Source: Shigella phage TB004
Direction: 5' to 3' (one strand)
DNA length: 64,000 nucleotides
Sequence record: MW822011
The notes beneath the pieces are model-generated. The model was given only the letters and a program-made list of their open reading frames with translations. It had not been told where the DNA came from and did no database searches. A program made the translations under genes and the position numbers. Positions 2,422 to 62,206 of this stretch are shown here, piece by piece; positions within the stretch are counted from its first letter, which is position 1, and every line of letters starts with the position of its first letter.

Positions 2422-3541
2422 TTTTAACCTTAACTGGGTCTATTGTTTCCAGTTTCGTTGCATTAGTGAACATATATAGATGAGTTACTGAATTATTATT
2501 TGATAATTCATGGATAACTTCATCAACGTAAAATTCTGTTTTAAATTGGTTTTTACTATCATTAAAAATAATTTTAACGCCAGGGGTTAAGTTAAAATTA
2601 CCGACAGTAGAACATTTAGCATAGCCATCATATTGTGCCATAGTTTGAAGACGAATAGCTTCTTCATACCCGTTCCTATAAGTCATTTCAGAATAAGCAC
2701 CTGATCTTGACACTACAATAGAGTTTTCTCCCTTTCCTGTAGTAATCATTGGCAATGAAGAATCTAAAAATGAATGCGCATAGATAGTAGCGTTTTTCAT
2801 TGGGTCACGTTTGTGAGGATTCGATTTAGTCAACCAAACGAAATCATATGCTAATGGATATTTTAATTCTTGGATGAATTGACCTATTAAAGATGGCTCA
2901 CCGACAATCATTGGATATGGTTCTTGATTTATCATCATATCATAGTCCATCATGTTAACTCCCATGATGTCTTGCCACACAAACACAAATTTGTCACTTC
3001 CTACAGCTAGAGCAACTTCTCTAACATACGATAAATAGTTTTCAAATGTACTAGTCCACGGAATATCAGGAACATAAGCATTTATAGCATTTATTGCTGG
3101 AGTTAATAATGTGCGATCTTGATAAATGACGCCAAGCATTTCCTTTATAGATTCACCTGCATCAGGGAAAAACGGTCTGCCAAATTTAAGATTTTCTATG
3201 GAATGAATAGTTCCCAATTCAATAGCAATGATGTTATCACCCTTTGAATCTACTGACACGGAAAAATGCTTACATCCATAAATTCTTGTTTTAACATTAT
3301 TAATATCGTTTGCATTAGCTACAGAAATCTGAATTATTTCATTTCCATCCATTTTTGTATGGATGTTTTTAGAATCATAAAACTGCAGCATTCCTTCATT
3401 TCGGCCATAAAGAGAATCCCGCATAGTTAATGTGGTAATAGTAGCAGCTAATTCAACAAATCTATTATTACTCCAAGCGTCGTAACTATCAAACAATTTA
3501 ACGCTGAGATTTGGATATCCTGGGCGTTGCAACATACTCAT
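2366..3541 (-). CDS. 27: gp27 baseplate hub subunit
   Basis: 391 aa, matches T4 gp27 length and position. Confidence 0.85.
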
Positions 3542-15139: not shown

Positions 15140-15949
15140 TTAGAAACGAGATGCGACTTTCGCATATACACTTACAATATCTTCTGCACCAGGTGCAGCT
15201 TTATCTTCTACAGCTTCAGTGACGAAATTCAGTCCGGCTGCTTCAGTATCAGGAGTATTTATACCCTCAGTAATAGTGCTTTCATCTTTATTAGACTTCT
15301 TCACCATTTCTACGATGGCACTCAATTTACTTGAGAATTCATCTGAATAATCCATACCTTCGACCAGAGCAGAGACTTTTTCTTTTTGAGACTCAGTCAG
15401 ATCTTTAGTACTTTCGCTCAATGCCACTTCACGCTGCACATAATTGATATATGCGTCGCGCATATTGAGTTCTTCGAACAGACGAGCTGATTCTTCTTTA
15501 TGTTCTTGCAGCTCTTCTTCCATTTCAGCCACAACATCAACTGATTCTTCTGGAACAACAACGTTGTGTTCAACAAAGAGCTCTTTTAATCCACCAAGCA
15601 TGGATTCAAACAGTTCGGCTTTGATGCCTTTATCAACTGCTAATTTATTTTCAGCGAGCCATTCTTTCGCAAGATGGTCGATGAATTTAGAAGCTTGCTC
15701 AGCGATTTTCTTCTCAGCTTTTTCTTCGGCTTCTTCTTTATTTTTTTCTACTTCTTCTTCTGCTTTTTCAGCAATTTTAGCGATATGAGATTCAGCTAAT
15801 TTAACGGCGTGCTGCTTGACGGTAGCTTCGAATACAGTGCCGAAAGTTTCTTTTGCTTCCGGAGAAATATTAACTGATTCGAAAATACTATCAAGAGCAA
15901 CGGAAGCATCAATTTTTTGCGCTTCAGCAATCAGTTGTTCTTTAAGCAT
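15140..15949 (-). CDS. 22: gp22 prohead core scaffold
   Basis: 269 aa, highly acidic coiled-coil protein. Confidence 0.9.
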   Translation of the reverse strand: MLKEQLIAEAQKIDASVALDSIFESVNISPEAKETFGTVFEATVKQHAVKLAESHIAKIAEKAEEEVEKNKEEAEEKAEKKIAEQASKFIDHLAKEWLAENKLAVDKGIKAELFESMLGGLKELFVEHNVVVPEESVDVVAEMEEELQEHKEESARLFEELNMRDAYINYVQREVALSESTKDLTESQKEKVSALVEGMDYSDEFSSKLSAIVEMVKKSNKDESTITEGINTPDTEAAGLNFVTEAVEDKAAPGAEDIVSVYAKVASRF

Positions 15950-15975: not shown

Positions 15976-15983
15976 ATATTTAT
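15976..15983 (-). promoter_or_regulatory. late promoter upstream of gene 22
   Basis: TATAAATA on minus strand. Confidence 0.6.
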
Positions 15984-16618
15984 AACGCTTTTTTCATGGC
16001 CTCTGCGAGAGCCATATAGGCGTCATCGGCACTTGTATCGGCTTCCGCCGTCTGTGATTCGGTAATTTCCTTAGGAGTTACCCATGCATCTGGAGCACTT
16101 GGACCCCATACTGCATCAACACCTACAGTTAATTTGAATCCTTCGTTTACGATACGATAACCTTTATTTGTGTCAGTCAATGAACCTAATCCACGAGAAG
16201 AAACTCCTGGAATCCATCCGGCACGAATATTAGCTGCTAATTTATCTCCAGGACCATGGTCACCTTCAATAACACGAGCTCGTCCGTATACGTCATTTCC
16301 TTTCCACCACATATCTTCTATAATGATAGCGGCTTGCATCGGGTCAACATTAGCGCGTGGAGGATGATTTAATTCTCCGAGAGCTTGTTTAGTTAAAACT
16401 TGCTCATTGATATAGTCTTTTACCGCTTTTTCTAATATGCGTTTTGGATAAAGACGTTTATTTCTATTGACGACTTCCGCTTGCATGAATATTCCTTCGA
16501 TGTATAAACCAGGTTTTAAACCTAAGTCTTTTCCATCATGGGATTCAAGCATTGGCACACCATCAATAATTTCGCCAGGTTGACCCCAAGTTTCAATTAG
16601 TAATTGGGGTTCATTCAT
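15980..16618 (-). CDS. 21: gp21 prohead core protease
   Basis: 212 aa, position 22-21-68. Confidence 0.9.
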   Translation of the reverse strand: MNEPQLLIETWGQPGEIIDGVPMLESHDGKDLGLKPGLYIEGIFMQAEVVNRNKRLYPKRILEKAVKDYINEQVLTKQALGELNHPPRANVDPMQAAIIIEDMWWKGNDVYGRARVIEGDHGPGDKLAANIRAGWIPGVSSRGLGSLTDTNKGYRIVNEGFKLTVGVDAVWGPSAPDAWVTPKEITESQTAEADTSADDAYMALAEAMKKAL

Positions 16619-44131: not shown

Positions 44132-44844
44132 ATGAAACTAATCTTTTTAAGTGGTGTAAAGCGTAGTGGAAAAGATACTACTGCAGATTTTATCATGAAT
44201 AATTATTCTGCAGTTAAATATCAACTTGCTGGTCCTATTAAAGATGCATTGGCTTATGCATGGGGTGTATTTGCAGCAAACACTGACTATCCTTGTTTAA
44301 CTCGTAAAGAGTTTGAAGGAATTGACTATGATCGTGAAACTAATTTAAATCTGACTAAATTAGAAGTAATTACGATTATGGAACAAGCATTTTGCTATCT
44401 TAATAGTAAAAGCCCAATTAAAGGTGTGTTTGTTTTTGATGACGCAGTTAATTTCGTAGCATTTAACAAGATTGCTGACGTTATAAATAATATTGAAGAT
44501 CAATGGTCAGTCCGTCGTCTGATGCAAGCCCTAGGTACGGATTTGATTGTTAATAACTTCGACCGCATGTATTGGGTAAAATTATTTGCTTTAGATTATC
44601 TTGATAAATTTAACTCAGGTTATGATTATTATATCGTTCCTGATACTCGTCAAGATCATGAAATGGATGCGGCTAGGGCGATGGGTGCTACAGTAATTCA
44701 TGTAGTTCGTCCTGGTCAAAAATCCAATGATACTCATATTACAGAAGCTGGATTGCCAATTCGTGATGGCGATTTAGTAATTACAAACGATGGTTCTCTT
44801 GAAGAACTTTTTTCTAAAATTAAAAATACACTAAAGGTACTATA

Positions 44845-44845
<1 letters not shown>
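44132..44845 (+). CDS. 1: gp1 deoxynucleoside monophosphate kinase
   Basis: 237 aa, P-loop GVKRSGKDT. Confidence 0.9.
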
Positions 44846-45542
<697 letters not shown>

Positions 45543-45553
45543 TTTCACAAAGT

Positions 45554-45585
45554 TATTTACACGGGGTTTTAGTTGTGATACTATT
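45554..45585 (+). promoter_or_regulatory. T4-type early promoter (IP gene 1)
   Basis: ATTTAC -35-like and TGATACTAT extended -10. Confidence 0.5.
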
Positions 45586-45620
45586 ACCCTATCAAAACAA
45601 ATGAGTGATTGGAGAATAAA

Positions 45621-45893
45621 ATGAAAACATTTAAAGAATTTATCAATGAAGCTACTTTTAACGAAAAAGTAAAAATTAGTAAAGCTGTCAAGACTTTGAT
45701 TGCTGACATCAATTACCTATATGATATTGATTTAACTGACTATGTAACAGTTGGTAACAAACGTAACTTTTTCGTGTTTGACATCTCTGAACTTGACCAG
45801 AATCAAATTAACAACATTGAGCGTTTTGCTAATGATAAGGGTCTTCGTCATGAGTCAGCGGGTTATAAAAAATACGCAATTTATTTAAAATGA
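45621..45893 (+). CDS. internal protein with capsid targeting sequence (IPI locus)
   Basis: Starts MKTFKEFINE|A (CTS with I-x-E protease site); own early promoter; adjacent to 57B. Confidence 0.65.
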   Translation: MKTFKEFINEATFNEKVKISKAVKTLIADINYLYDIDLTDYVTVGNKRNFFVFDISELDQNQINNIERFANDKGLRHESAGYKKYAIYLK

Positions 45894-45923
45894 GTTTACT
45901 TTTAAATAGGGTTGTGGTACTAT
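45894..45923 (+). promoter_or_regulatory. T4-type early promoter (IP gene 2)
   Basis: GTTTAC ... TGGTACTAT. Confidence 0.5.
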
Positions 45924-45953
45924 TATCTCATCAAAATTAATTAGGAAAATAAA

Positions 45954-46262
45954 ATGAAAACATTTAAAGAATTTATCAATGAAGCGGCTGCGCCAAAGAC
46001 ATTCGTTATTAATACTCAGGCGAGTCTTGATGATGAATACGCGGAGGCAATTCTGAAGTCACTTGCTAAGAACGGTGTTGAAGTAATTGCTTCGGACTTT
46101 AAGAAAGGGGCTTCCGAGATGTTTATTTCTATAACTAAAGGATCTAAAGCTAAGATTAAATCATCATTCGGAGTTGCTCGTACCGATCAAATCGACAATC
46201 ATGACTTTAAACAAACTGGTGCTAAACGGCAGAATACAATTGCATCACGCGGAATAAAATAG
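45954..46262 (+). CDS. second CTS-bearing internal-protein-like ORF
   Basis: 102 aa; first 37 nt from ATG identical to previous gene (MKTFKEFINEA); own early promoter. Confidence 0.6.
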   Translation: MKTFKEFINEAAAPKTFVINTQASLDDEYAEAILKSLAKNGVEVIASDFKKGASEMFISITKGSKAKIKSSFGVARTDQIDNHDFKQTGAKRQNTIASRGIK

Positions 46263-46274
46263 TTTATAAAAACA

Positions 46275-46304
46275 GTTTACTTTTAGATAGGGTAGTGATA
46301 CTAT
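46275..46304 (+). promoter_or_regulatory. T4-type early promoter
   Basis: GTTTAC ... TGATACTAT. Confidence 0.5.
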
Positions 46305-46332
46305 TACCCTATCAACTACAGAGGAGAATAAA

Positions 46333-46518
46333 ATGAAACGTTGTGAATTAATTCGAAATGTTGCTATTGCAATTTCTGCTTCCGCTTTTAGTTTTTCAAT
46401 GTTTGTTGGATTTATATGCGGATTATTAACTACAGCAGAAAATGTGTTTTCACTTGTAGTAGCATTTTTAATTGGTTTAATTGCTATCGTTATGGATAAA
46501 ATTTCTAAAGGTGAATAG
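46333..46518 (+). CDS. small membrane protein
   Basis: 61 aa, two hydrophobic helices; early promoter cassette upstream. Confidence 0.5.
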   Translation: MKRCELIRNVAIAISASAFSFSMFVGFICGLLTTAENVFSLVVAFLIGLIAIVMDKISKGE

Positions 46519-47287: not shown

Positions 47288-47360
47288 TGGGAATTAGCCA
47301 AGTTGGTAAGGCACTGGATTTTGATTCCAGGATGCAAAGGTTCGAGTCCTTTATTCCCAG
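47288..47360 (+). tRNA. tRNA-Gln (anticodon UUG)
   Basis: Cloverleaf by hand: acceptor TGGGAAT/ATTCCCA, anticodon loop TTTTGAT, T-arm AAAGG-TTCGAGT-CCTTT. Confidence 0.85.
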
Positions 47361-47361
47361 C

Positions 47362-47448
47362 GCGAGAATGGTCAAATTGGTAAAGGCACAGCACTTAAAA
47401 TGCTGCGGAATGATTTCCTTGTGGGTTCGAGTCCCACTTCTCGCACCA
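47362..47448 (+). tRNA. tRNA-Leu (anticodon UAA), long variable arm
   Basis: Acceptor GCGAGAA/TTCTCGC, loop CTTAAAA, T-arm GTGGG-TTCGAGT-CCCAC, encoded CCA. Confidence 0.85.
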
Positions 47449-47453
47449 AATTT

Positions 47454-47527
<74 letters not shown>

Positions 47528-47537
47528 ATTTAATTTA

Positions 47538-47611
47538 CTCCGTGTAGCTCAGTTTGGTAGAGCGTCTGCTTTGGGAGCAGAATGTCGCAGGTTCAAATCC
47601 TGCCGCGGAGA
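47538..47611 (+). tRNA. tRNA-Pro (anticodon UGG), no encoded CCA
   Basis: Acceptor CTCCGTG/CGCGGAG, loop TTTGGGA, T-arm GCAGG-TTCAAAT-CCTGC. Confidence 0.8.
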
Positions 47612-47613
47612 CT

Positions 47614-47703
47614 GGAGGCGTGGCAGAGTGGTTTAATGCACCGGTCTTGAAAACCGGCAGTCGCTCCGGCGACTCATAGGTTCAAATCCTATCGCCTCCG
47701 CCA
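47614..47703 (+). tRNA. tRNA-Ser (anticodon UGA), class II
   Basis: Acceptor GGAGGCG/CGCCTCC, loop CTTGAAA, long variable arm, CCA. Confidence 0.85.
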
Positions 47704-47708
47704 GTTTT

Positions 47709-47784
47709 GCTGATTTAGCTCAGTAGGTAGAGCAACTCACTTGTAATGAGAAGGTCGGCGGTTCGATTCCGTCAATCAGCACCA
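47709..47784 (+). tRNA. tRNA-Thr (anticodon UGU)
   Basis: Acceptor GCTGATT/AATCAGC, loop CTTGTAA, CCA. Confidence 0.8.
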
Positions 47785-47785
47785 A

Positions 47786-47860
47786 GGCCCTGTAGCTGGA
47801 AGGTTCAAGCAAGCGACTCATAATCGCCAGATGGTGGTTCAATTCCACCCAGGGCCACCA
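47786..47860 (+). tRNA. tRNA-Ile (anticodon CAU, lysidine type) or Met
   Basis: Acceptor GGCCCTG/CAGGGCC, loop CTCATAA, CCA; T4 carries Ile with CAU at this position. Confidence 0.8.
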
Positions 47861-47873
47861 AATTAAGAATTAA

Positions 47874-47960
47874 GGGGAGTTATCCCGTAGAGGTAGCGGT
47901 GTGGACTGTAAATCCATTGTCATTGCGACTCGGGTGGTTCGACTCCATCACTCCCCACCA
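47874..47960 (+). tRNA. tRNA-Tyr-like (anticodon GUA), class II, or tRNA-like stable RNA
   Basis: Acceptor GGGGAGT/ACTCCCC + A + CCA; anticodon loop CTGTAAA; T-arm GGTGG-TTCGACT-CCATC; D-arm imperfect. Confidence 0.55.
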
Positions 47961-47964
47961 ATTT

Positions 47965-48039
47965 GGATGTGTAGCTCAGTGGTAGAGCAGTTGACTGTTA
48001 ATCAATTGGTCCATGGTTCGAATCCATGCATGTCCGCCA
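47965..48039 (+). tRNA. tRNA-Asn (anticodon GUU)
   Basis: Canonical cloverleaf: acceptor GGATGTG/CATGTCC, D-stem GCTC/GAGC, loop CTGTTAA, T-arm CATGG-TTCGAAT-CCATG, CCA. Confidence 0.75.
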
Positions 48040-48164
48040 AATTTGTGACAACTGTCACATTAATATCTACTTGACGCGATTATAGGGTTGAACTGATCAC
48101 TCTTCTCTTAATTTCGTGTGAAGACATCTTGATTGTTGGAGTAGGTATTAATGTGAACTAATTA

Positions 48165-48241
48165 CGGGGTGTAACTCAATTGTATAGAGTAGCGGTCCTC
48201 TAAACCGCAGGTTAAAGGTTAGAATCCTTTCACCCTGGCCA
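48165..48241 (+). tRNA. tRNA-Arg (anticodon UCU)
   Basis: Acceptor CGGGGTG/CACCCTG, D-stem ACTC/GAGT, anticodon stem GCGGT/ACCGC with loop CCTCTAA, T-arm AAAGG-TTAGAAT-CCTTT, CCA. Confidence 0.7.
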
Positions 48242-49792: not shown

Positions 49793-49870
49793 TTAAGTTA
49801 CAATCACTTAAGCCCCTTCCTATGGTTGGGGCTTTCGGGCATCTAGGGCAGATAAATTTTTCACAAAGTT

Positions 49871-49899
49871 GTTTACTTCTCCTTGAGGTATGATACTAT
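49871..49899 (+). promoter_or_regulatory. T4-type early promoter
   Basis: GTTTAC ... TGATACTAT. Confidence 0.5.
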
Positions 49900-49929
49900 A
49901 GACCTATCAAAACAAATGAGGAAAACATT

Positions 49930-50433
49930 ATGAGTCTTTATACTGAACTGAATAAAAAATCTGAAGAATCGCGTGACGTTGTTTTTAAAAATGTACAAAA
50001 GCGTATTTTGGAAAAGATGTATGATGCTGCATCTAAAGGTGAAAAATCATGCCGCTTTCCGATGAGATGTTCTACAGATTTATGCTCAAATACTATTGAA
50101 TGGTTAGAAAGCGAAGGTCTTACTGTAGAGAAAAACCCGGCGACTTCTATTGACGGTGAATCATATATTAGTATTTCTTGGGATAAACCACAGGTTAATG
50201 AGAAAGACGGTGATTGGGTTGTGGATGTTAAGACTTCTGATGGTGGACGTTCTGTTGAAGTTTCAGCCGTAGTTAAAGGTACACATGGGCAAAATAGCTG
50301 GGGATGTGGTGGTGAAGAAAAAGAAATTGTTCTTAGTGTGATTGCAAGGTCCACTAGCAATAAAATTGCCCAGAGCATCATCTATGCTGCGTGCATTGAA
50401 GCTGGAAAAATTTGCAAAATTAAAAATAAATGA
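49930..50433 (+). CDS. hypothetical protein
   Basis: 167 aa; early promoter cassette upstream. Confidence 0.55.
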   Translation: MSLYTELNKKSEESRDVVFKNVQKRILEKMYDAASKGEKSCRFPMRCSTDLCSNTIEWLESEGLTVEKNPATSIDGESYISISWDKPQVNEKDGDWVVDVKTSDGGRSVEVSAVVKGTHGQNSWGCGGEEKEIVLSVIARSTSNKIAQSIIYAACIEAGKICKIKNK

Positions 50434-54281: not shown

Positions 54282-54849
54282 ATGAAAACCTATAAAGAAT
54301 TTATCGCTGGAAAAGGCCAAAGGCATTAATAAAGATGAGTGGACTTACCGAGGAAACGGCTTTGACCCTAAAACAGCCCCTATTGAACGATACTTAGCTA
54401 CAAAAGCTTCCGACTTTAAAGCTTTCGCTTGGGAAGGACTTCGCTGGCGTACCGATCTAAATATTGAAGTTGATGGGCTTAAATTTGGCCATATTCAAGA
54501 TGTTGTTGCTAGTAACTTGGATGCAGCTTTTGTTAAAGCTGACGGTGACCTTCGTCGCTGGAATTTAAAACTATTCTCTAAACAGAAAGGCCCGGTGTTT
54601 GTGCCTAAAGCTGGTAAATGGGTTATTGATAATAAATTAGCTAAGGCTGTCAACTACGCTGGTCTTGAATTCGCCAAGCATAAATCATCATGGAAAGGTC
54701 TTGATGCAATGGCCTTCCGTAAAGAATTTGCTGATGTTATGGCTAAAGGCGGCTTTAAGGCAGAAATAGATACCTCTAAAGGTACGTTTAAAGACGCTAA
54801 TGTTCAGTACGCTTACGCTGTTGCTAATGCAGCCCGTGGTAATTCTTAA
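54282..54849 (+). pseudogene. ipIII: internal protein III gene, apparently frameshifted after codon 9
   Basis: CTS MKTYKEFIA in frame 3 stops after 15 codons (54327-54329); body (…EKAKGINKDEWTYRGNGF…ARGNS) open in frame 1 from 54286; consistent with one extra G at 54309/54310. Confidence 0.7.
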
Positions 54850-54957: not shown

Positions 54958-55260
54958 ATGAAAACATATCAAGAATTTATTACTGAAGCGCGAGTGAGTG
55001 CAGGTAAATTAGAAGCCGCTATAAATAAAAAGGCCCATTCATTTCACGATTTGTCCGATAAAGACCGTAAGAAACTTGTAAGCCTTTATATTGACAAAGA
55101 GCGTATTCTCGCTCTTCCTGGCGCTAATGAAGGTAAACAGGCCAAGCCTTTGAATGCTGTCGAAAAGAAAATTGATAACTTTGCTTCTAAATTCGGTATG
55201 TCTATGGATGACCTTCAGCAAGCGGCTATCGAAGCAGCTAAAGTAATTAAAGGTAAATAA
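54958..55260 (+). CDS. ipII: internal protein II
   Basis: 100 aa, CTS MKTYQEFITE|ARV. Confidence 0.8.
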   Translation: MKTYQEFITEARVSAGKLEAAINKKAHSFHDLSDKDRKKLVSLYIDKERILALPGANEGKQAKPLNAVEKKIDNFASKFGMSMDDLQQAAIEAAKVIKGK

Positions 55261-61864: not shown

Positions 61865-62006
61865 CGGGAGTCCTTTTTTCATTTTGCCAGTTTACTTTCC
61901 AAAATGAGTATGGTATAATAAAACTATCTTATAGATCGGGAGTCCTTTTTTCATTTTGCCAGTTTACTTTCCAAAATGAGTATGGTATAATAAAACTATC
62001 TTATAG
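61865..62006 (+). repeat. tandem direct duplication (2 x 72 bp) of an early promoter cassette
   Basis: CGGGAGTCCTTTTTTCATTTTGCCAGTTTACTTTCCAAAATGAGTATGGTATAATAAAACTATCTTATAG occurs at 61865-61934 and 61937-62006. Confidence 0.9.
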
Positions 62007-62017
62007 AGGAGAACATC

Positions 62018-62206
62018 ATGAAAATTGAAGCACTTAATCAAGAAGGAAATATCTACGTTATCATTAATGGTGATTTTTTCGTCGACATGGATGAAGTTAC
62101 TAGTGAAGAACTTGTAGAACTTCTTAAGAAACGTTATGATATGTGTGATGAAGCTGCAACTCATATGGCGTGTGCAATATTCTCTCTTTCATATGTGGTG
62201 GAATAA
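62018..62206 (+). CDS. hypothetical protein
   Basis: 62 aa behind duplicated early promoter. Confidence 0.45.

Follow-up and report, generated by a model that had tools for sequence, protein, structure and literature searches.

What is encoded by two small neighbouring genes that open with the same stretch of DNA and then part company, and what do they do for the phage that carries them? The question is raised by a 64,000-nucleotide (nt) stretch of Shigella phage TB004 (record MW822011; hereafter the window), a piece of a Tequatrovirus (T4-like) genome in which two such open reading frames (ORFs) lie side by side within positions 45554-46340 (Table 1). The original prediction, made from the DNA letters only, had placed them at a hyperplastic internal-protein locus of the ipI type and had proposed the second as an injected anti-defence effector. 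Both ORFs exist as predicted. By homology they are the internal-protein genes Ip9 and Ip7, both already named and deposited, and the identical start that they share points to a recent conversion of one gene's targeting peptide by the cassette of the other.

The identity of the two genes follows from full-length homology. The PHROG families phrog_7673 and phrog_2667, both annotated as 'internal head protein', cover Ip9 over residues 1-90 and Ip7 over residues 1-102, respectively. Ip9 is 92-94% identical to the Ip9 proteins of RB15 and RB33, the mature part of Ip7 is 100% identical to that of RB32, and the RB32 homologues are labelled Ip9 and Ip7, 'similar to RB15 and K3', with Ip5 preceding them. 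These names date from 1994 and phages RB15 and K3 (Repoila et al. 1994, as relayed by PMC2839356, PMC12373910 and the annotations of RB32 and RB15), a naming that the original prediction had missed. It had listed identity of the second ORF with an already characterized internal protein as a finding that would count against it; the ORF is indeed identical to a named internal protein, but one without an established function. The genes are widespread, as tblastn with the mature proteins found Ip7 in 283 phage records and Ip9 in 193. The closest DNA match to the 787 nt of the region is Escherichia phage 132 (99.0% identity), at least 80% of the region is covered in 49 phage records, and every minus-strand ORF of the region is shorter than 45 residues.

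The bodies of the two proteins are unrelated, as had been claimed, and BLASTP aligns only residues 1-11. Predicted mature Ip9 runs from A11 to K90 (80 residues, 9.3 kDa, isoelectric point (pI) 8.2), counted from the ATG; the ORF lister begins this ORF at a TTG at 45609. Predicted mature Ip7 runs from A11 to K102 (92 residues, 9.9 kDa, pI 9.65), and its 12 Lys make 'Lys-rich' a fair description.

Gene order fixes the position of the locus. On the + strand, gene 1, 57A and 57B are followed by the two ORFs and then by tRNA.4, tRNA.3, tRNA.2 and the tRNA cluster; the order is identical in T4, where ipI occupies the place of Ip9 and Ip7. The slot is bounded by conserved genes, 57B on the left and tRNA.4, which has no capsid-targeting sequence, on the right. 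From IMG/VR, 36 loci were retrieved by a search with 57B; counting RB32 and the window as well, 34 have a recognisable tRNA.4 boundary. The number of ORFs in the slot ranges from 0 to 5 across these 34 loci; their bodies form 20 families, of which about 16 have a capsid-targeting-like start. Ip9 is present in 14 loci and Ip7 in 9, and both orders, Ip9-Ip7 and Ip7-Ip9, are seen. Both the placement and the hyperplasticity that had been predicted are thus borne out, and the sequence comparisons identify the region as an ipI-type hyperplastic internal-protein locus with two previously named genes.

The exact match between the two ORFs spans 38 nt, 32 from the ATG onwards and 6 before it, and lengthens to 42 nt when one mismatch is allowed. 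The 37 identical coding nucleotides first reported were therefore too many, while the 11 common residues, MKTFKEFINEA, were read correctly; codon 11 is GCT in one gene and GCG in the other. The shared 32-mer has two copies in the window and 0 in 100 shuffles. Both starts fit the targeting pattern MKT(Y/F)(Q/K)EF(I/L)xE, in which position 4 is aromatic and position 7 is Phe, and in both an (I/L)-x-E motif for the gp21 protease stands directly before the mature protein (I8-N9-E10/A11, where the slash marks the predicted cut). In alignments of 12 Ip7 and 16 Ip9 homologues, F7, I8 and E10 are constant and residue 9 is variable, and the combination of fixed positions 8 and 10 with a free position 9 is the pattern expected of an I-x-E cleavage site. 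Both families have F or Y at position 4; here Phe stands at positions 4 and 7.

These residues are the ones that matter in T4, where targeting needs residues 4 and 7 and processing by gp21 needs residues 8 and 10, the first 10 residues of IPIII suffice for head incorporation, the 10-residue peptide alone loads foreign proteins into heads and the internal proteins associate with gp22 (PMC9026906). The window encodes gp21 and gp22, as well as gp23 and gp20, and the locus therefore lies in a T-even genome equipped with both the protease and the scaffold. With the necessary residues conserved and both partners present, the assignment of MKTFKEFINE as a capsid-targeting sequence is supported. By analogy with T4, the products of Ip9 and Ip7 probably enter the phage head and reach the next host cell together with the DNA. 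A second I-x-E motif, I-S-E/L, lies at residues 55-57 of Ip9 (45783-45791), within the folded domain; it is probably no conserved gp21 site, because position 55 is Thr or Met in some homologues.

We then asked how two unrelated bodies came to have the same start. Compared to RB32, the Ip9 body of the window is the same at 236 of 240 nt, whereas the peptide-coding part is the same at 27 of 33 nt (Fisher p = 3e-4); compared to the neighbouring Ip7 in the window, the same peptide-coding part agrees at 32 of 33 nt. Because the peptide diverges from RB32 while the body matches, and because it matches Ip7, the alignments indicate that the identical start of both ORFs is a recent conversion of the Ip9 peptide by an Ip7-type cassette. 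They likewise indicate that the targeting peptide follows the genome in which the gene resides and not the body to which it is attached.

Other parts of the slot carry similar marks of exchange. In RB32, the Ip5 cassette is flanked by identical TTTCACAAAGTTGTTTACAT blocks; the window has a single such block, TTTCACAAAGTTATTTACAC, with two mismatches, and no Ip5. The two arms of the promoter module in front of Ip7 (module 2) belong to different module types, AATAGGGT on the left and ATCTCATC on the right; those of a phage with Ip7 alone (L032), GATGAGGTA and TATCTCATC, match each other. Crossing over at the -10/loop region could account for this chimeric module. The modules accordingly flank units that are inserted, deleted or exchanged among related genomes, as seen from the 0 to 5 cassettes, the two gene orders, the absence of Ip5 and the conversion of the Ip9 peptide. 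These mosaic cassettes match the PeSL-like elements of internal-protein loci (Repoila et al. 1994 and Arbiol et al. 2010, the former through its citation in PMC2839356). In Escherichia phage OLB35, a 77-residue 'ip7 protein' (P0014) joins about residues 29-72 of Ip7 to about residues 63-90 of Ip9, without a targeting peptide; it looks like a deletion between neighbouring Ip7 and Ip9 genes, and the order Ip7-Ip9 is present in one of the loci (L005).

Three modules, each with a promoter and a ribosome binding site (RBS), stand 5′ of Ip9, Ip7 and tRNA.4. Common to all of them are (G/A)TTTAC, 18 nt, TACTAT and then GGA(G/A)AATAAAATG, and by sequence each is a putative early promoter with its -35 and -10 elements right 5′ of a variable ORF or, for module 3, of tRNA.4. 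The original prediction had correctly counted three, the third before 46333, but had called them near-identical, which is too strong: identity is 84% between copies 2 and 3, over 49 nt, and copy 1 is 79% identical to copy 2 and 74% to copy 3 over 34 nt. Module 1 has a degenerate -35 element (ATTTAC, not GTTTAC) and a weak inverted repeat, and a promoter scan reads it as TTTACA, 17 nt and TACTAT, with TG upstream. The inverted-repeat arms of module 2 are mismatched to each other, as expected of a chimera, and its folding energy is only -1.9 kcal/mol. Module 3 has a perfect 9-bp inverted repeat around the -10 element, GATAGGGTA (46286-46294) and TACCCTATC (46305-46313), with a folding energy of -16.4 kcal/mol.

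Frequent self-complementarity is a general property of these modules. The folding energies of 35 distinct modules average -9.96 kcal/mol, compared to -2.89 kcal/mol in shuffles, and matched arm variants occur (GATAGGGTA/TACCCTATC and GATGAGGTA/TACCTCATC). Pairing across the -10 element in a fixed register is, however, not above shuffles (55.6% versus 54.2% paired; 94 of 500 shuffles were as high). The register of the stem differs from module to module, and the right arm shares positions with the conserved promoter consensus. Because fixed-register covariation is not significant, we claim no selected structure, and selection on RNA or DNA pairing is unproven. A scan for intrinsic terminators gave 0 terminator-like sites, and no hairpin has a U tract. 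About 4 kb downstream of the ip locus, at 49859-49945, an early-promoter module has the blocks TTTCACAAAGTTGTTTAC and CCTATCAAAACAAATGAG in common with that of Ip9 and is a further homology patch for recombination, outside the locus. A block of about 57 nt with the early promoter TTCATTTTGCCAGTTTACTTTCCAAAATGAGTATGGTATAATAAAACTATCTTATAGA is repeated in tandem at 61890-61946 and 61962-62018, with a spacing of 72 nt.

The body of Ip9 has a wider distribution than its cassette. Searches by tblastn with mature Ip9 also matched phages outside the T4-like group (Table 1): without a peptide, the domain is a stand-alone early gene in Guernseyvirinae and Seuratvirus siphoviruses and lies inside 860-965-residue proteins of Kuttervirus. 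A profile search of 5.8 billion proteins returned many 72-residue versions on 42-45-kb contigs, and an exhaustive HMMER search of 1.84 billion cluster representatives returned 28 Ip9-domain clusters. One group of these has a start of the targeting type (MKSFKEFVTES, MKSFKEYLTES or MKTFQEFLNEA), a second lacks it and a third is embedded in proteins of 142 to 861 residues; no function is annotated in any of the 28. The larger phage proteins in which the domain is embedded have 142, 237, 305, 861 and 965 residues (P0031-P0079; Kuttervirus allotria). The domain has the conserved motif GNKRNFF...NNIERF...EPxGYKK-A.

Tentatively, this distribution suggests that the Ip9 body may be a portable phage domain of about 70 residues and no invention of T-even phages, a proposal that we consider quite possible but would not yet call probable. 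T4-like phages would have fused the domain to a promoter/RBS/targeting-peptide cassette, by which a protein made after infection would have become a pre-loaded, injected one. If this is true, the target would be a host defence or factor common to these unrelated phages, rather than an enzyme specific for glucosylated hydroxymethylcytosine (glucosyl-hmC), and the ip locus would be a general adaptor that turns cytoplasmic counter-defence domains into injected ones. The peptide-less homologues also offer a practical handle, as they make the domain amenable to study as a simple cytoplasmic protein.

What, then, do Ip9 and Ip7 do? The best explanation, which we consider reasonably probable, is that both are packaged through their targeting sequences, processed by gp21 and injected, that each most likely neutralises one host nuclease and that their cassettes recombine. 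This explanation starts from what is observed, namely the identity of the genes and the locus, the conserved peptide and cleavage motif, the presence of gp21 and gp22, the mosaic cassettes and the conversion of the Ip9 peptide. Each gene would be expressed from its own T4-early-type promoter/RBS module, and its 10-residue start, MKTFKEFINE, would bring the precursor into the prohead, to its gp22 scaffold core. A gp21 cut after Glu10 would then leave the mature 80- and 92-residue proteins held in the head, from which they would leave with the DNA at the next infection. Once inside the cell, each would most likely bind and neutralise one specific host nuclease that attacks modified T-even DNA, the most likely class of target being a type IV restriction enzyme (GmrSD, McrBC or similar). 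Between genomes, the repeated promoter/inverted-repeat/RBS/peptide blocks would act as homology patches through which recombination inserts, deletes, reorders and converts cassettes.

The later steps of this sequence are modelled on proteins whose action is known. Each of T4 Ip1, Ip2 and Ip3 inhibits a GmrSD enzyme of its own and gives no protection against the targets of the others (PMC12373910), and Bas37_0260, encoded in the same slot, blocks McrBC (preprint 10.1101/2025.11.20.689424). The proposal of an injected anti-defence effector fits this literature, from which we infer the anti-restriction role and the class of target; packaging, processing and ejection of Ip9 and Ip7 would follow the T4 pattern. 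The function is argued from analogy because Ip9 and Ip7 have no match in Pfam, NCBIfam or the PDB: in the Pfam and NCBIfam scans, no hit of Ip9, Ip7 or tRNA.4 passed the threshold, and PDB sequence searches with Ip9 and Ip7 gave only noise (E >= 0.02). The candidate that the McrBC inhibitor Bas37_0260 is itself Ip7 or Ip9 was rejected, as it is a protein of another family with an Ip5-like neighbour (Bas37 genome MZ501089).

The structure predictions are of moderate quality. AlphaFold2 models Ip9 as an alpha-beta-beta-alpha-beta-beta domain with a mean predicted local distance difference test score (pLDDT) of 74. The Ip7 model has a mean pLDDT of 64, with a beta-alpha-beta-beta core (residues 14-62) at about 84 and a tail (residues 76-102) below 50. 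Both predicted folds are generic, and Foldseek against viral models gave one significant match, to a 535-residue protein. The Ip7 tail (46179-46262; RTDQIDNHDFKQTGAKRQNTIASRGIK; pI about 10.3) is nearly invariant among homologues despite its low pLDDT. It is probably disordered and is a candidate interaction segment.

Several results weigh against a restriction enzyme as the target, or against packaging itself. Beyond the first 7-10 residues, neither Ip9 nor Ip7 has sequence similarity to Ip1, Ip2, Ip3 or Bas37_0260, and their mature parts are thus not homologous to any proven type IV restriction inhibitor. Among ip4-10, a set that includes ip7 and presumably ip9, none inhibited GmrSD variants reproducibly (PMC12373910 Supplementary Fig. 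9), and an apparent effect of ip7 on CLS_011 was not reproduced (PMC12373910). Furthermore, T2 naturally carries ip7 yet is restricted by the GmrSD enzymes tested in that study. Peptide-less homologues of the Ip9 body occur in phages that are not known for glucosyl-hmC DNA, which argues against a glucosyl-hmC-specific target. Finally, the late-promoter motif TATAAATA is absent from 45543-46340, with the nearest upstream copy on the + strand at 44482; late synthesis for prohead assembly would need read-through or a long-lived early mRNA, and we infer that protein is supplied at that time.

Alternative readings were also weighed. The genes have an early-type promoter alone, without a TATAAATA of their own, and the Ip9 domain is a stand-alone 72-74-residue protein without a peptide in siphoviruses, as would be expected if Ip9 and Ip7 were mainly early cytoplasmic accessory proteins that are injected little or not at all, with the peptide a mere passenger of the cassette. 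We consider this very unlikely: the peptide is kept at its targeting and processing residues in every T4-like homologue, in T4 this 10-residue sequence is enough to bring foreign proteins into the head, early-type promoters also drive the internal-protein genes of T4 (as cited in PMC2839356), and the late promoter at 44482 could read through the locus. The proteins could instead be packaged without a specific host target, as basic fillers for DNA charge, condensation or core assembly whose diversity is neutral drift. Their pI values (9.65 for mature Ip7, 8.2 for Ip9), the early view of T4 internal proteins as DNA-interacting, the head-assembly defects of IPIII mutants (PMC9026906) and the absence of a target from the ip4-10 screen are consistent with such a role. 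Yet all four functionally resolved proteins (Ip1, Ip2, Ip3 and Bas37_0260) are specific type IV restriction inhibitors, and the slot is empty in some relatives (L007), which shows that its genes are dispensable for assembly. Moreover, the bodies are folded and conserved, with the Ip7 tail and the C-terminal half of Ip9 nearly invariant, unlike a filler, and the Ip9 domain also occurs in phages where a head-filler role is impossible. Packaging without a target is, on balance, rather improbable.

A further alternative retains injection but changes the target, to a defence other than type IV restriction, such as another nuclease, an abortive-infection or toxin-antitoxin system, or a general host factor. 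The negative GmrSD screens, the occurrence of the Ip9 domain in Guernseyvirinae, Seuratvirus and Kuttervirus phages alike, and the adjoining 57B, an anti-CBASS Acb1 protein which implies that the region is not dedicated to anti-restriction, all speak for it. However, every protein of these loci with a resolved function inhibits type IV restriction, and the ip genes were tested against only eight GmrSD systems, three with known Ip inhibitors and five more that were active (PMC12373910). We regard this alternative as unlikely, and the injection of Ip9 and Ip7 as inhibitors of single type IV enzymes remains the explanation that we favour.

The window contains a second internal-protein locus, where an IPII homologue is the third intact gene with a capsid-targeting sequence. 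Beside it, an ipIII homologue is frameshifted by a deletion of TGAAGCTTCTG relative to phage ECML-134, located exactly at the peptide cleavage site. Its start now reads MKTYKEFIAGKGQRH*, and the remaining IPIII body carries on in the +1 frame; among the top-listed records, this stretch is about 14 nt longer than in the window. The broken ipIII is either a pseudogene or a sequencing error. At the first locus, the gene directly 5′ of the ip genes, 57B, encodes a full-length Acb1 (an anti-CBASS cyclic-nucleotide phosphodiesterase), which RefSeq phage records still call 'RNA ligase'.

Table 1. Coordinates of the genes, peptides and modules discussed, in positions of the window unless another locus is given.
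Feature	Position	Strand	Evidence or details
Ip9 precursor, 90 residues from ATG	45621-45893	+	phrog_7673, E = 1e-54; 92% identity to RB15 Ip9 (Q38376); labelled Ip9 in RB32
Ip9 capsid-targeting sequence MKTFKEFINE	45621-45650	+	Predicted gp21 cut after Glu10 (I-N-E/A); M1, K2, F7, I8, E10 invariant in 16 homologues
Ip7 precursor, 102 residues	45954-46262	+	phrog_2667, E = 2e-41; mature part as RB32 Ip7; labelled ip7 in T2
Ip7 capsid-targeting sequence MKTFKEFINE	45954-45983	+	Predicted cut after Glu10; M1, K2, E6, F7, I8, E10 invariant in 12 homologues
Module 1	45554-45620	+	-35 ATTTAC 45555-45560; -10 TACTAT 45579-45584; RBS GGAG 45611-45614
Module 2	45894-45953	+	-35 GTTTAC 45894-45899; -10 TACTAT 45918-45923; RBS AGGAAAA
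Module 3	46263-46332	+	-35 GTTTAC 46275-46280; -10 TACTAT 46299-46304; RBS GGAGGAG
gp21 prohead serine protease, expected remover of targeting sequences	15980-16618	-	Pfam Peptidase_S77, E = 1.5e-111
gp22 scaffolding core protein, destination of targeted internal proteins	15140-15949	-	Pfam T4_CASP, E = 8.3e-90
Gene 1, deoxynucleoside monophosphate (dNMP) kinase	44132-44845	+	
57A	44845-45087	+	
57B, Acb1-type phosphodiesterase	45087-45542	+	Pfam Acb1, E = 2.6e-60; position as in RB32 and T4
tRNA.4, 61-residue hydrophobic protein	46333-46518	+	phrog_1692, E = 6e-35; named tRNA.4 in RB32 and T4
Ten tRNA genes	47288-48241	+	
ipIII homologue, frameshifted	54282-54849	+	11-nt deletion at targeting-sequence cleavage site
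IPII homologue, second internal-protein locus, MKTYQEFITE/A	54958-55260	+	Motif scan, ORF list
Ip9 domain, 72-residue ORF opening early operon, Guernseyvirinae siphovirus M01	L040:2504-2722		49% identity; no upstream extension
Ip9 domain, 74-residue unannotated ORF, Seuratvirus ECP2304	L041, about 2492-2713		43% identity
Ip9 domain, C-terminal ~75 residues of 965-residue protein, Kuttervirus allotria	L042, coding sequence ending 2734		35% identity

The nearest relatives of this locus are those of RB15, K3, RB32 and T2 (RB32 genome NC_008515), which have the same genes at the same place in the order Ip9-Ip7-tRNA.4. The window differs from RB32 and RB15 in lacking the upstream Ip5 cassette, and from the RB15/RB32 type of Ip9 in its peptide, which is of the Ip7 type in place of their MKTYQEFISE. 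T4 IPI (IPI*; PDB 2JUB), which inhibits GmrSD of E. coli CT596, occupies the same slot between 57B and tRNA.4 and shares the first seven residues, MKTFKEF. It is likewise a small product freed by I-x-E cleavage, which is predicted for Ip9 and Ip7. Its propeptide has 19 residues (ITE/A), whereas those of Ip9 and Ip7 have 10, as in IPII and IPIII, and it has a known target, GmrSD, whereas Ip7 and Ip9 have no assigned one.

Bas37_0260, the injected McrBC inhibitor of phage KarlGJung, comes from the same slot and has the same kind of N-terminal peptide. The ipI locus thus also yields inhibitors of type IV enzymes beyond GmrSD. Its body is of a different family (77 residues, family F2) that is not in the window and has no similarity to Ip7 or Ip9 beyond the peptide. 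Ip9 and Ip7 are among the commonest occupants of the slot, and each solved neighbour is a precise inhibitor of one type IV restriction enzyme; the targets of Ip7 and Ip9 would therefore probably reveal further classes of restriction enzyme. Such classes, where they limit the host range of T-even phages, matter for the choice of therapeutic phages. The most useful leads to these targets are the peptide-less Ip9 homologues and the invariant Ip7 tail.

At the level of DNA, Arbiol et al. 2010 (PMC2839356) provide the closest parallel, in the PeSL cassettes of RB49 and phi1 and the T-even 'IP-associated elements', where a repeated early promoter and inverted repeat surround non-essential genes; the modules here are arranged alike, with a perfect inverted repeat in module 3 only. 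The chimeric modules of the window are consistent with crossovers within the loop, as for PeSLs. The two differ in that PeSLs have a sigma-70 consensus and poly-G/poly-C stems, whereas the modules here have the T4 early-promoter consensus and AT-rich stems across the -10 element, lack a U tract and belong to a shared block that extends through the RBS and the first 32 coding nucleotides. Repoila et al. 1994 had already set out the cassette architecture of internal-protein loci (cited in PMC2839356), and repeated promoter/stem-loop elements and the plasticity of the locus have already been published. Consequently, the locus holds no new kind of element; its genes, peptide, cassette repeats and arms-race reading have been in the literature since 1994 and 2007-2025. 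New here are the proposed portable Ip9 domain, the Ip9 peptide overwritten by the Ip7 type and the frameshifted ipIII.

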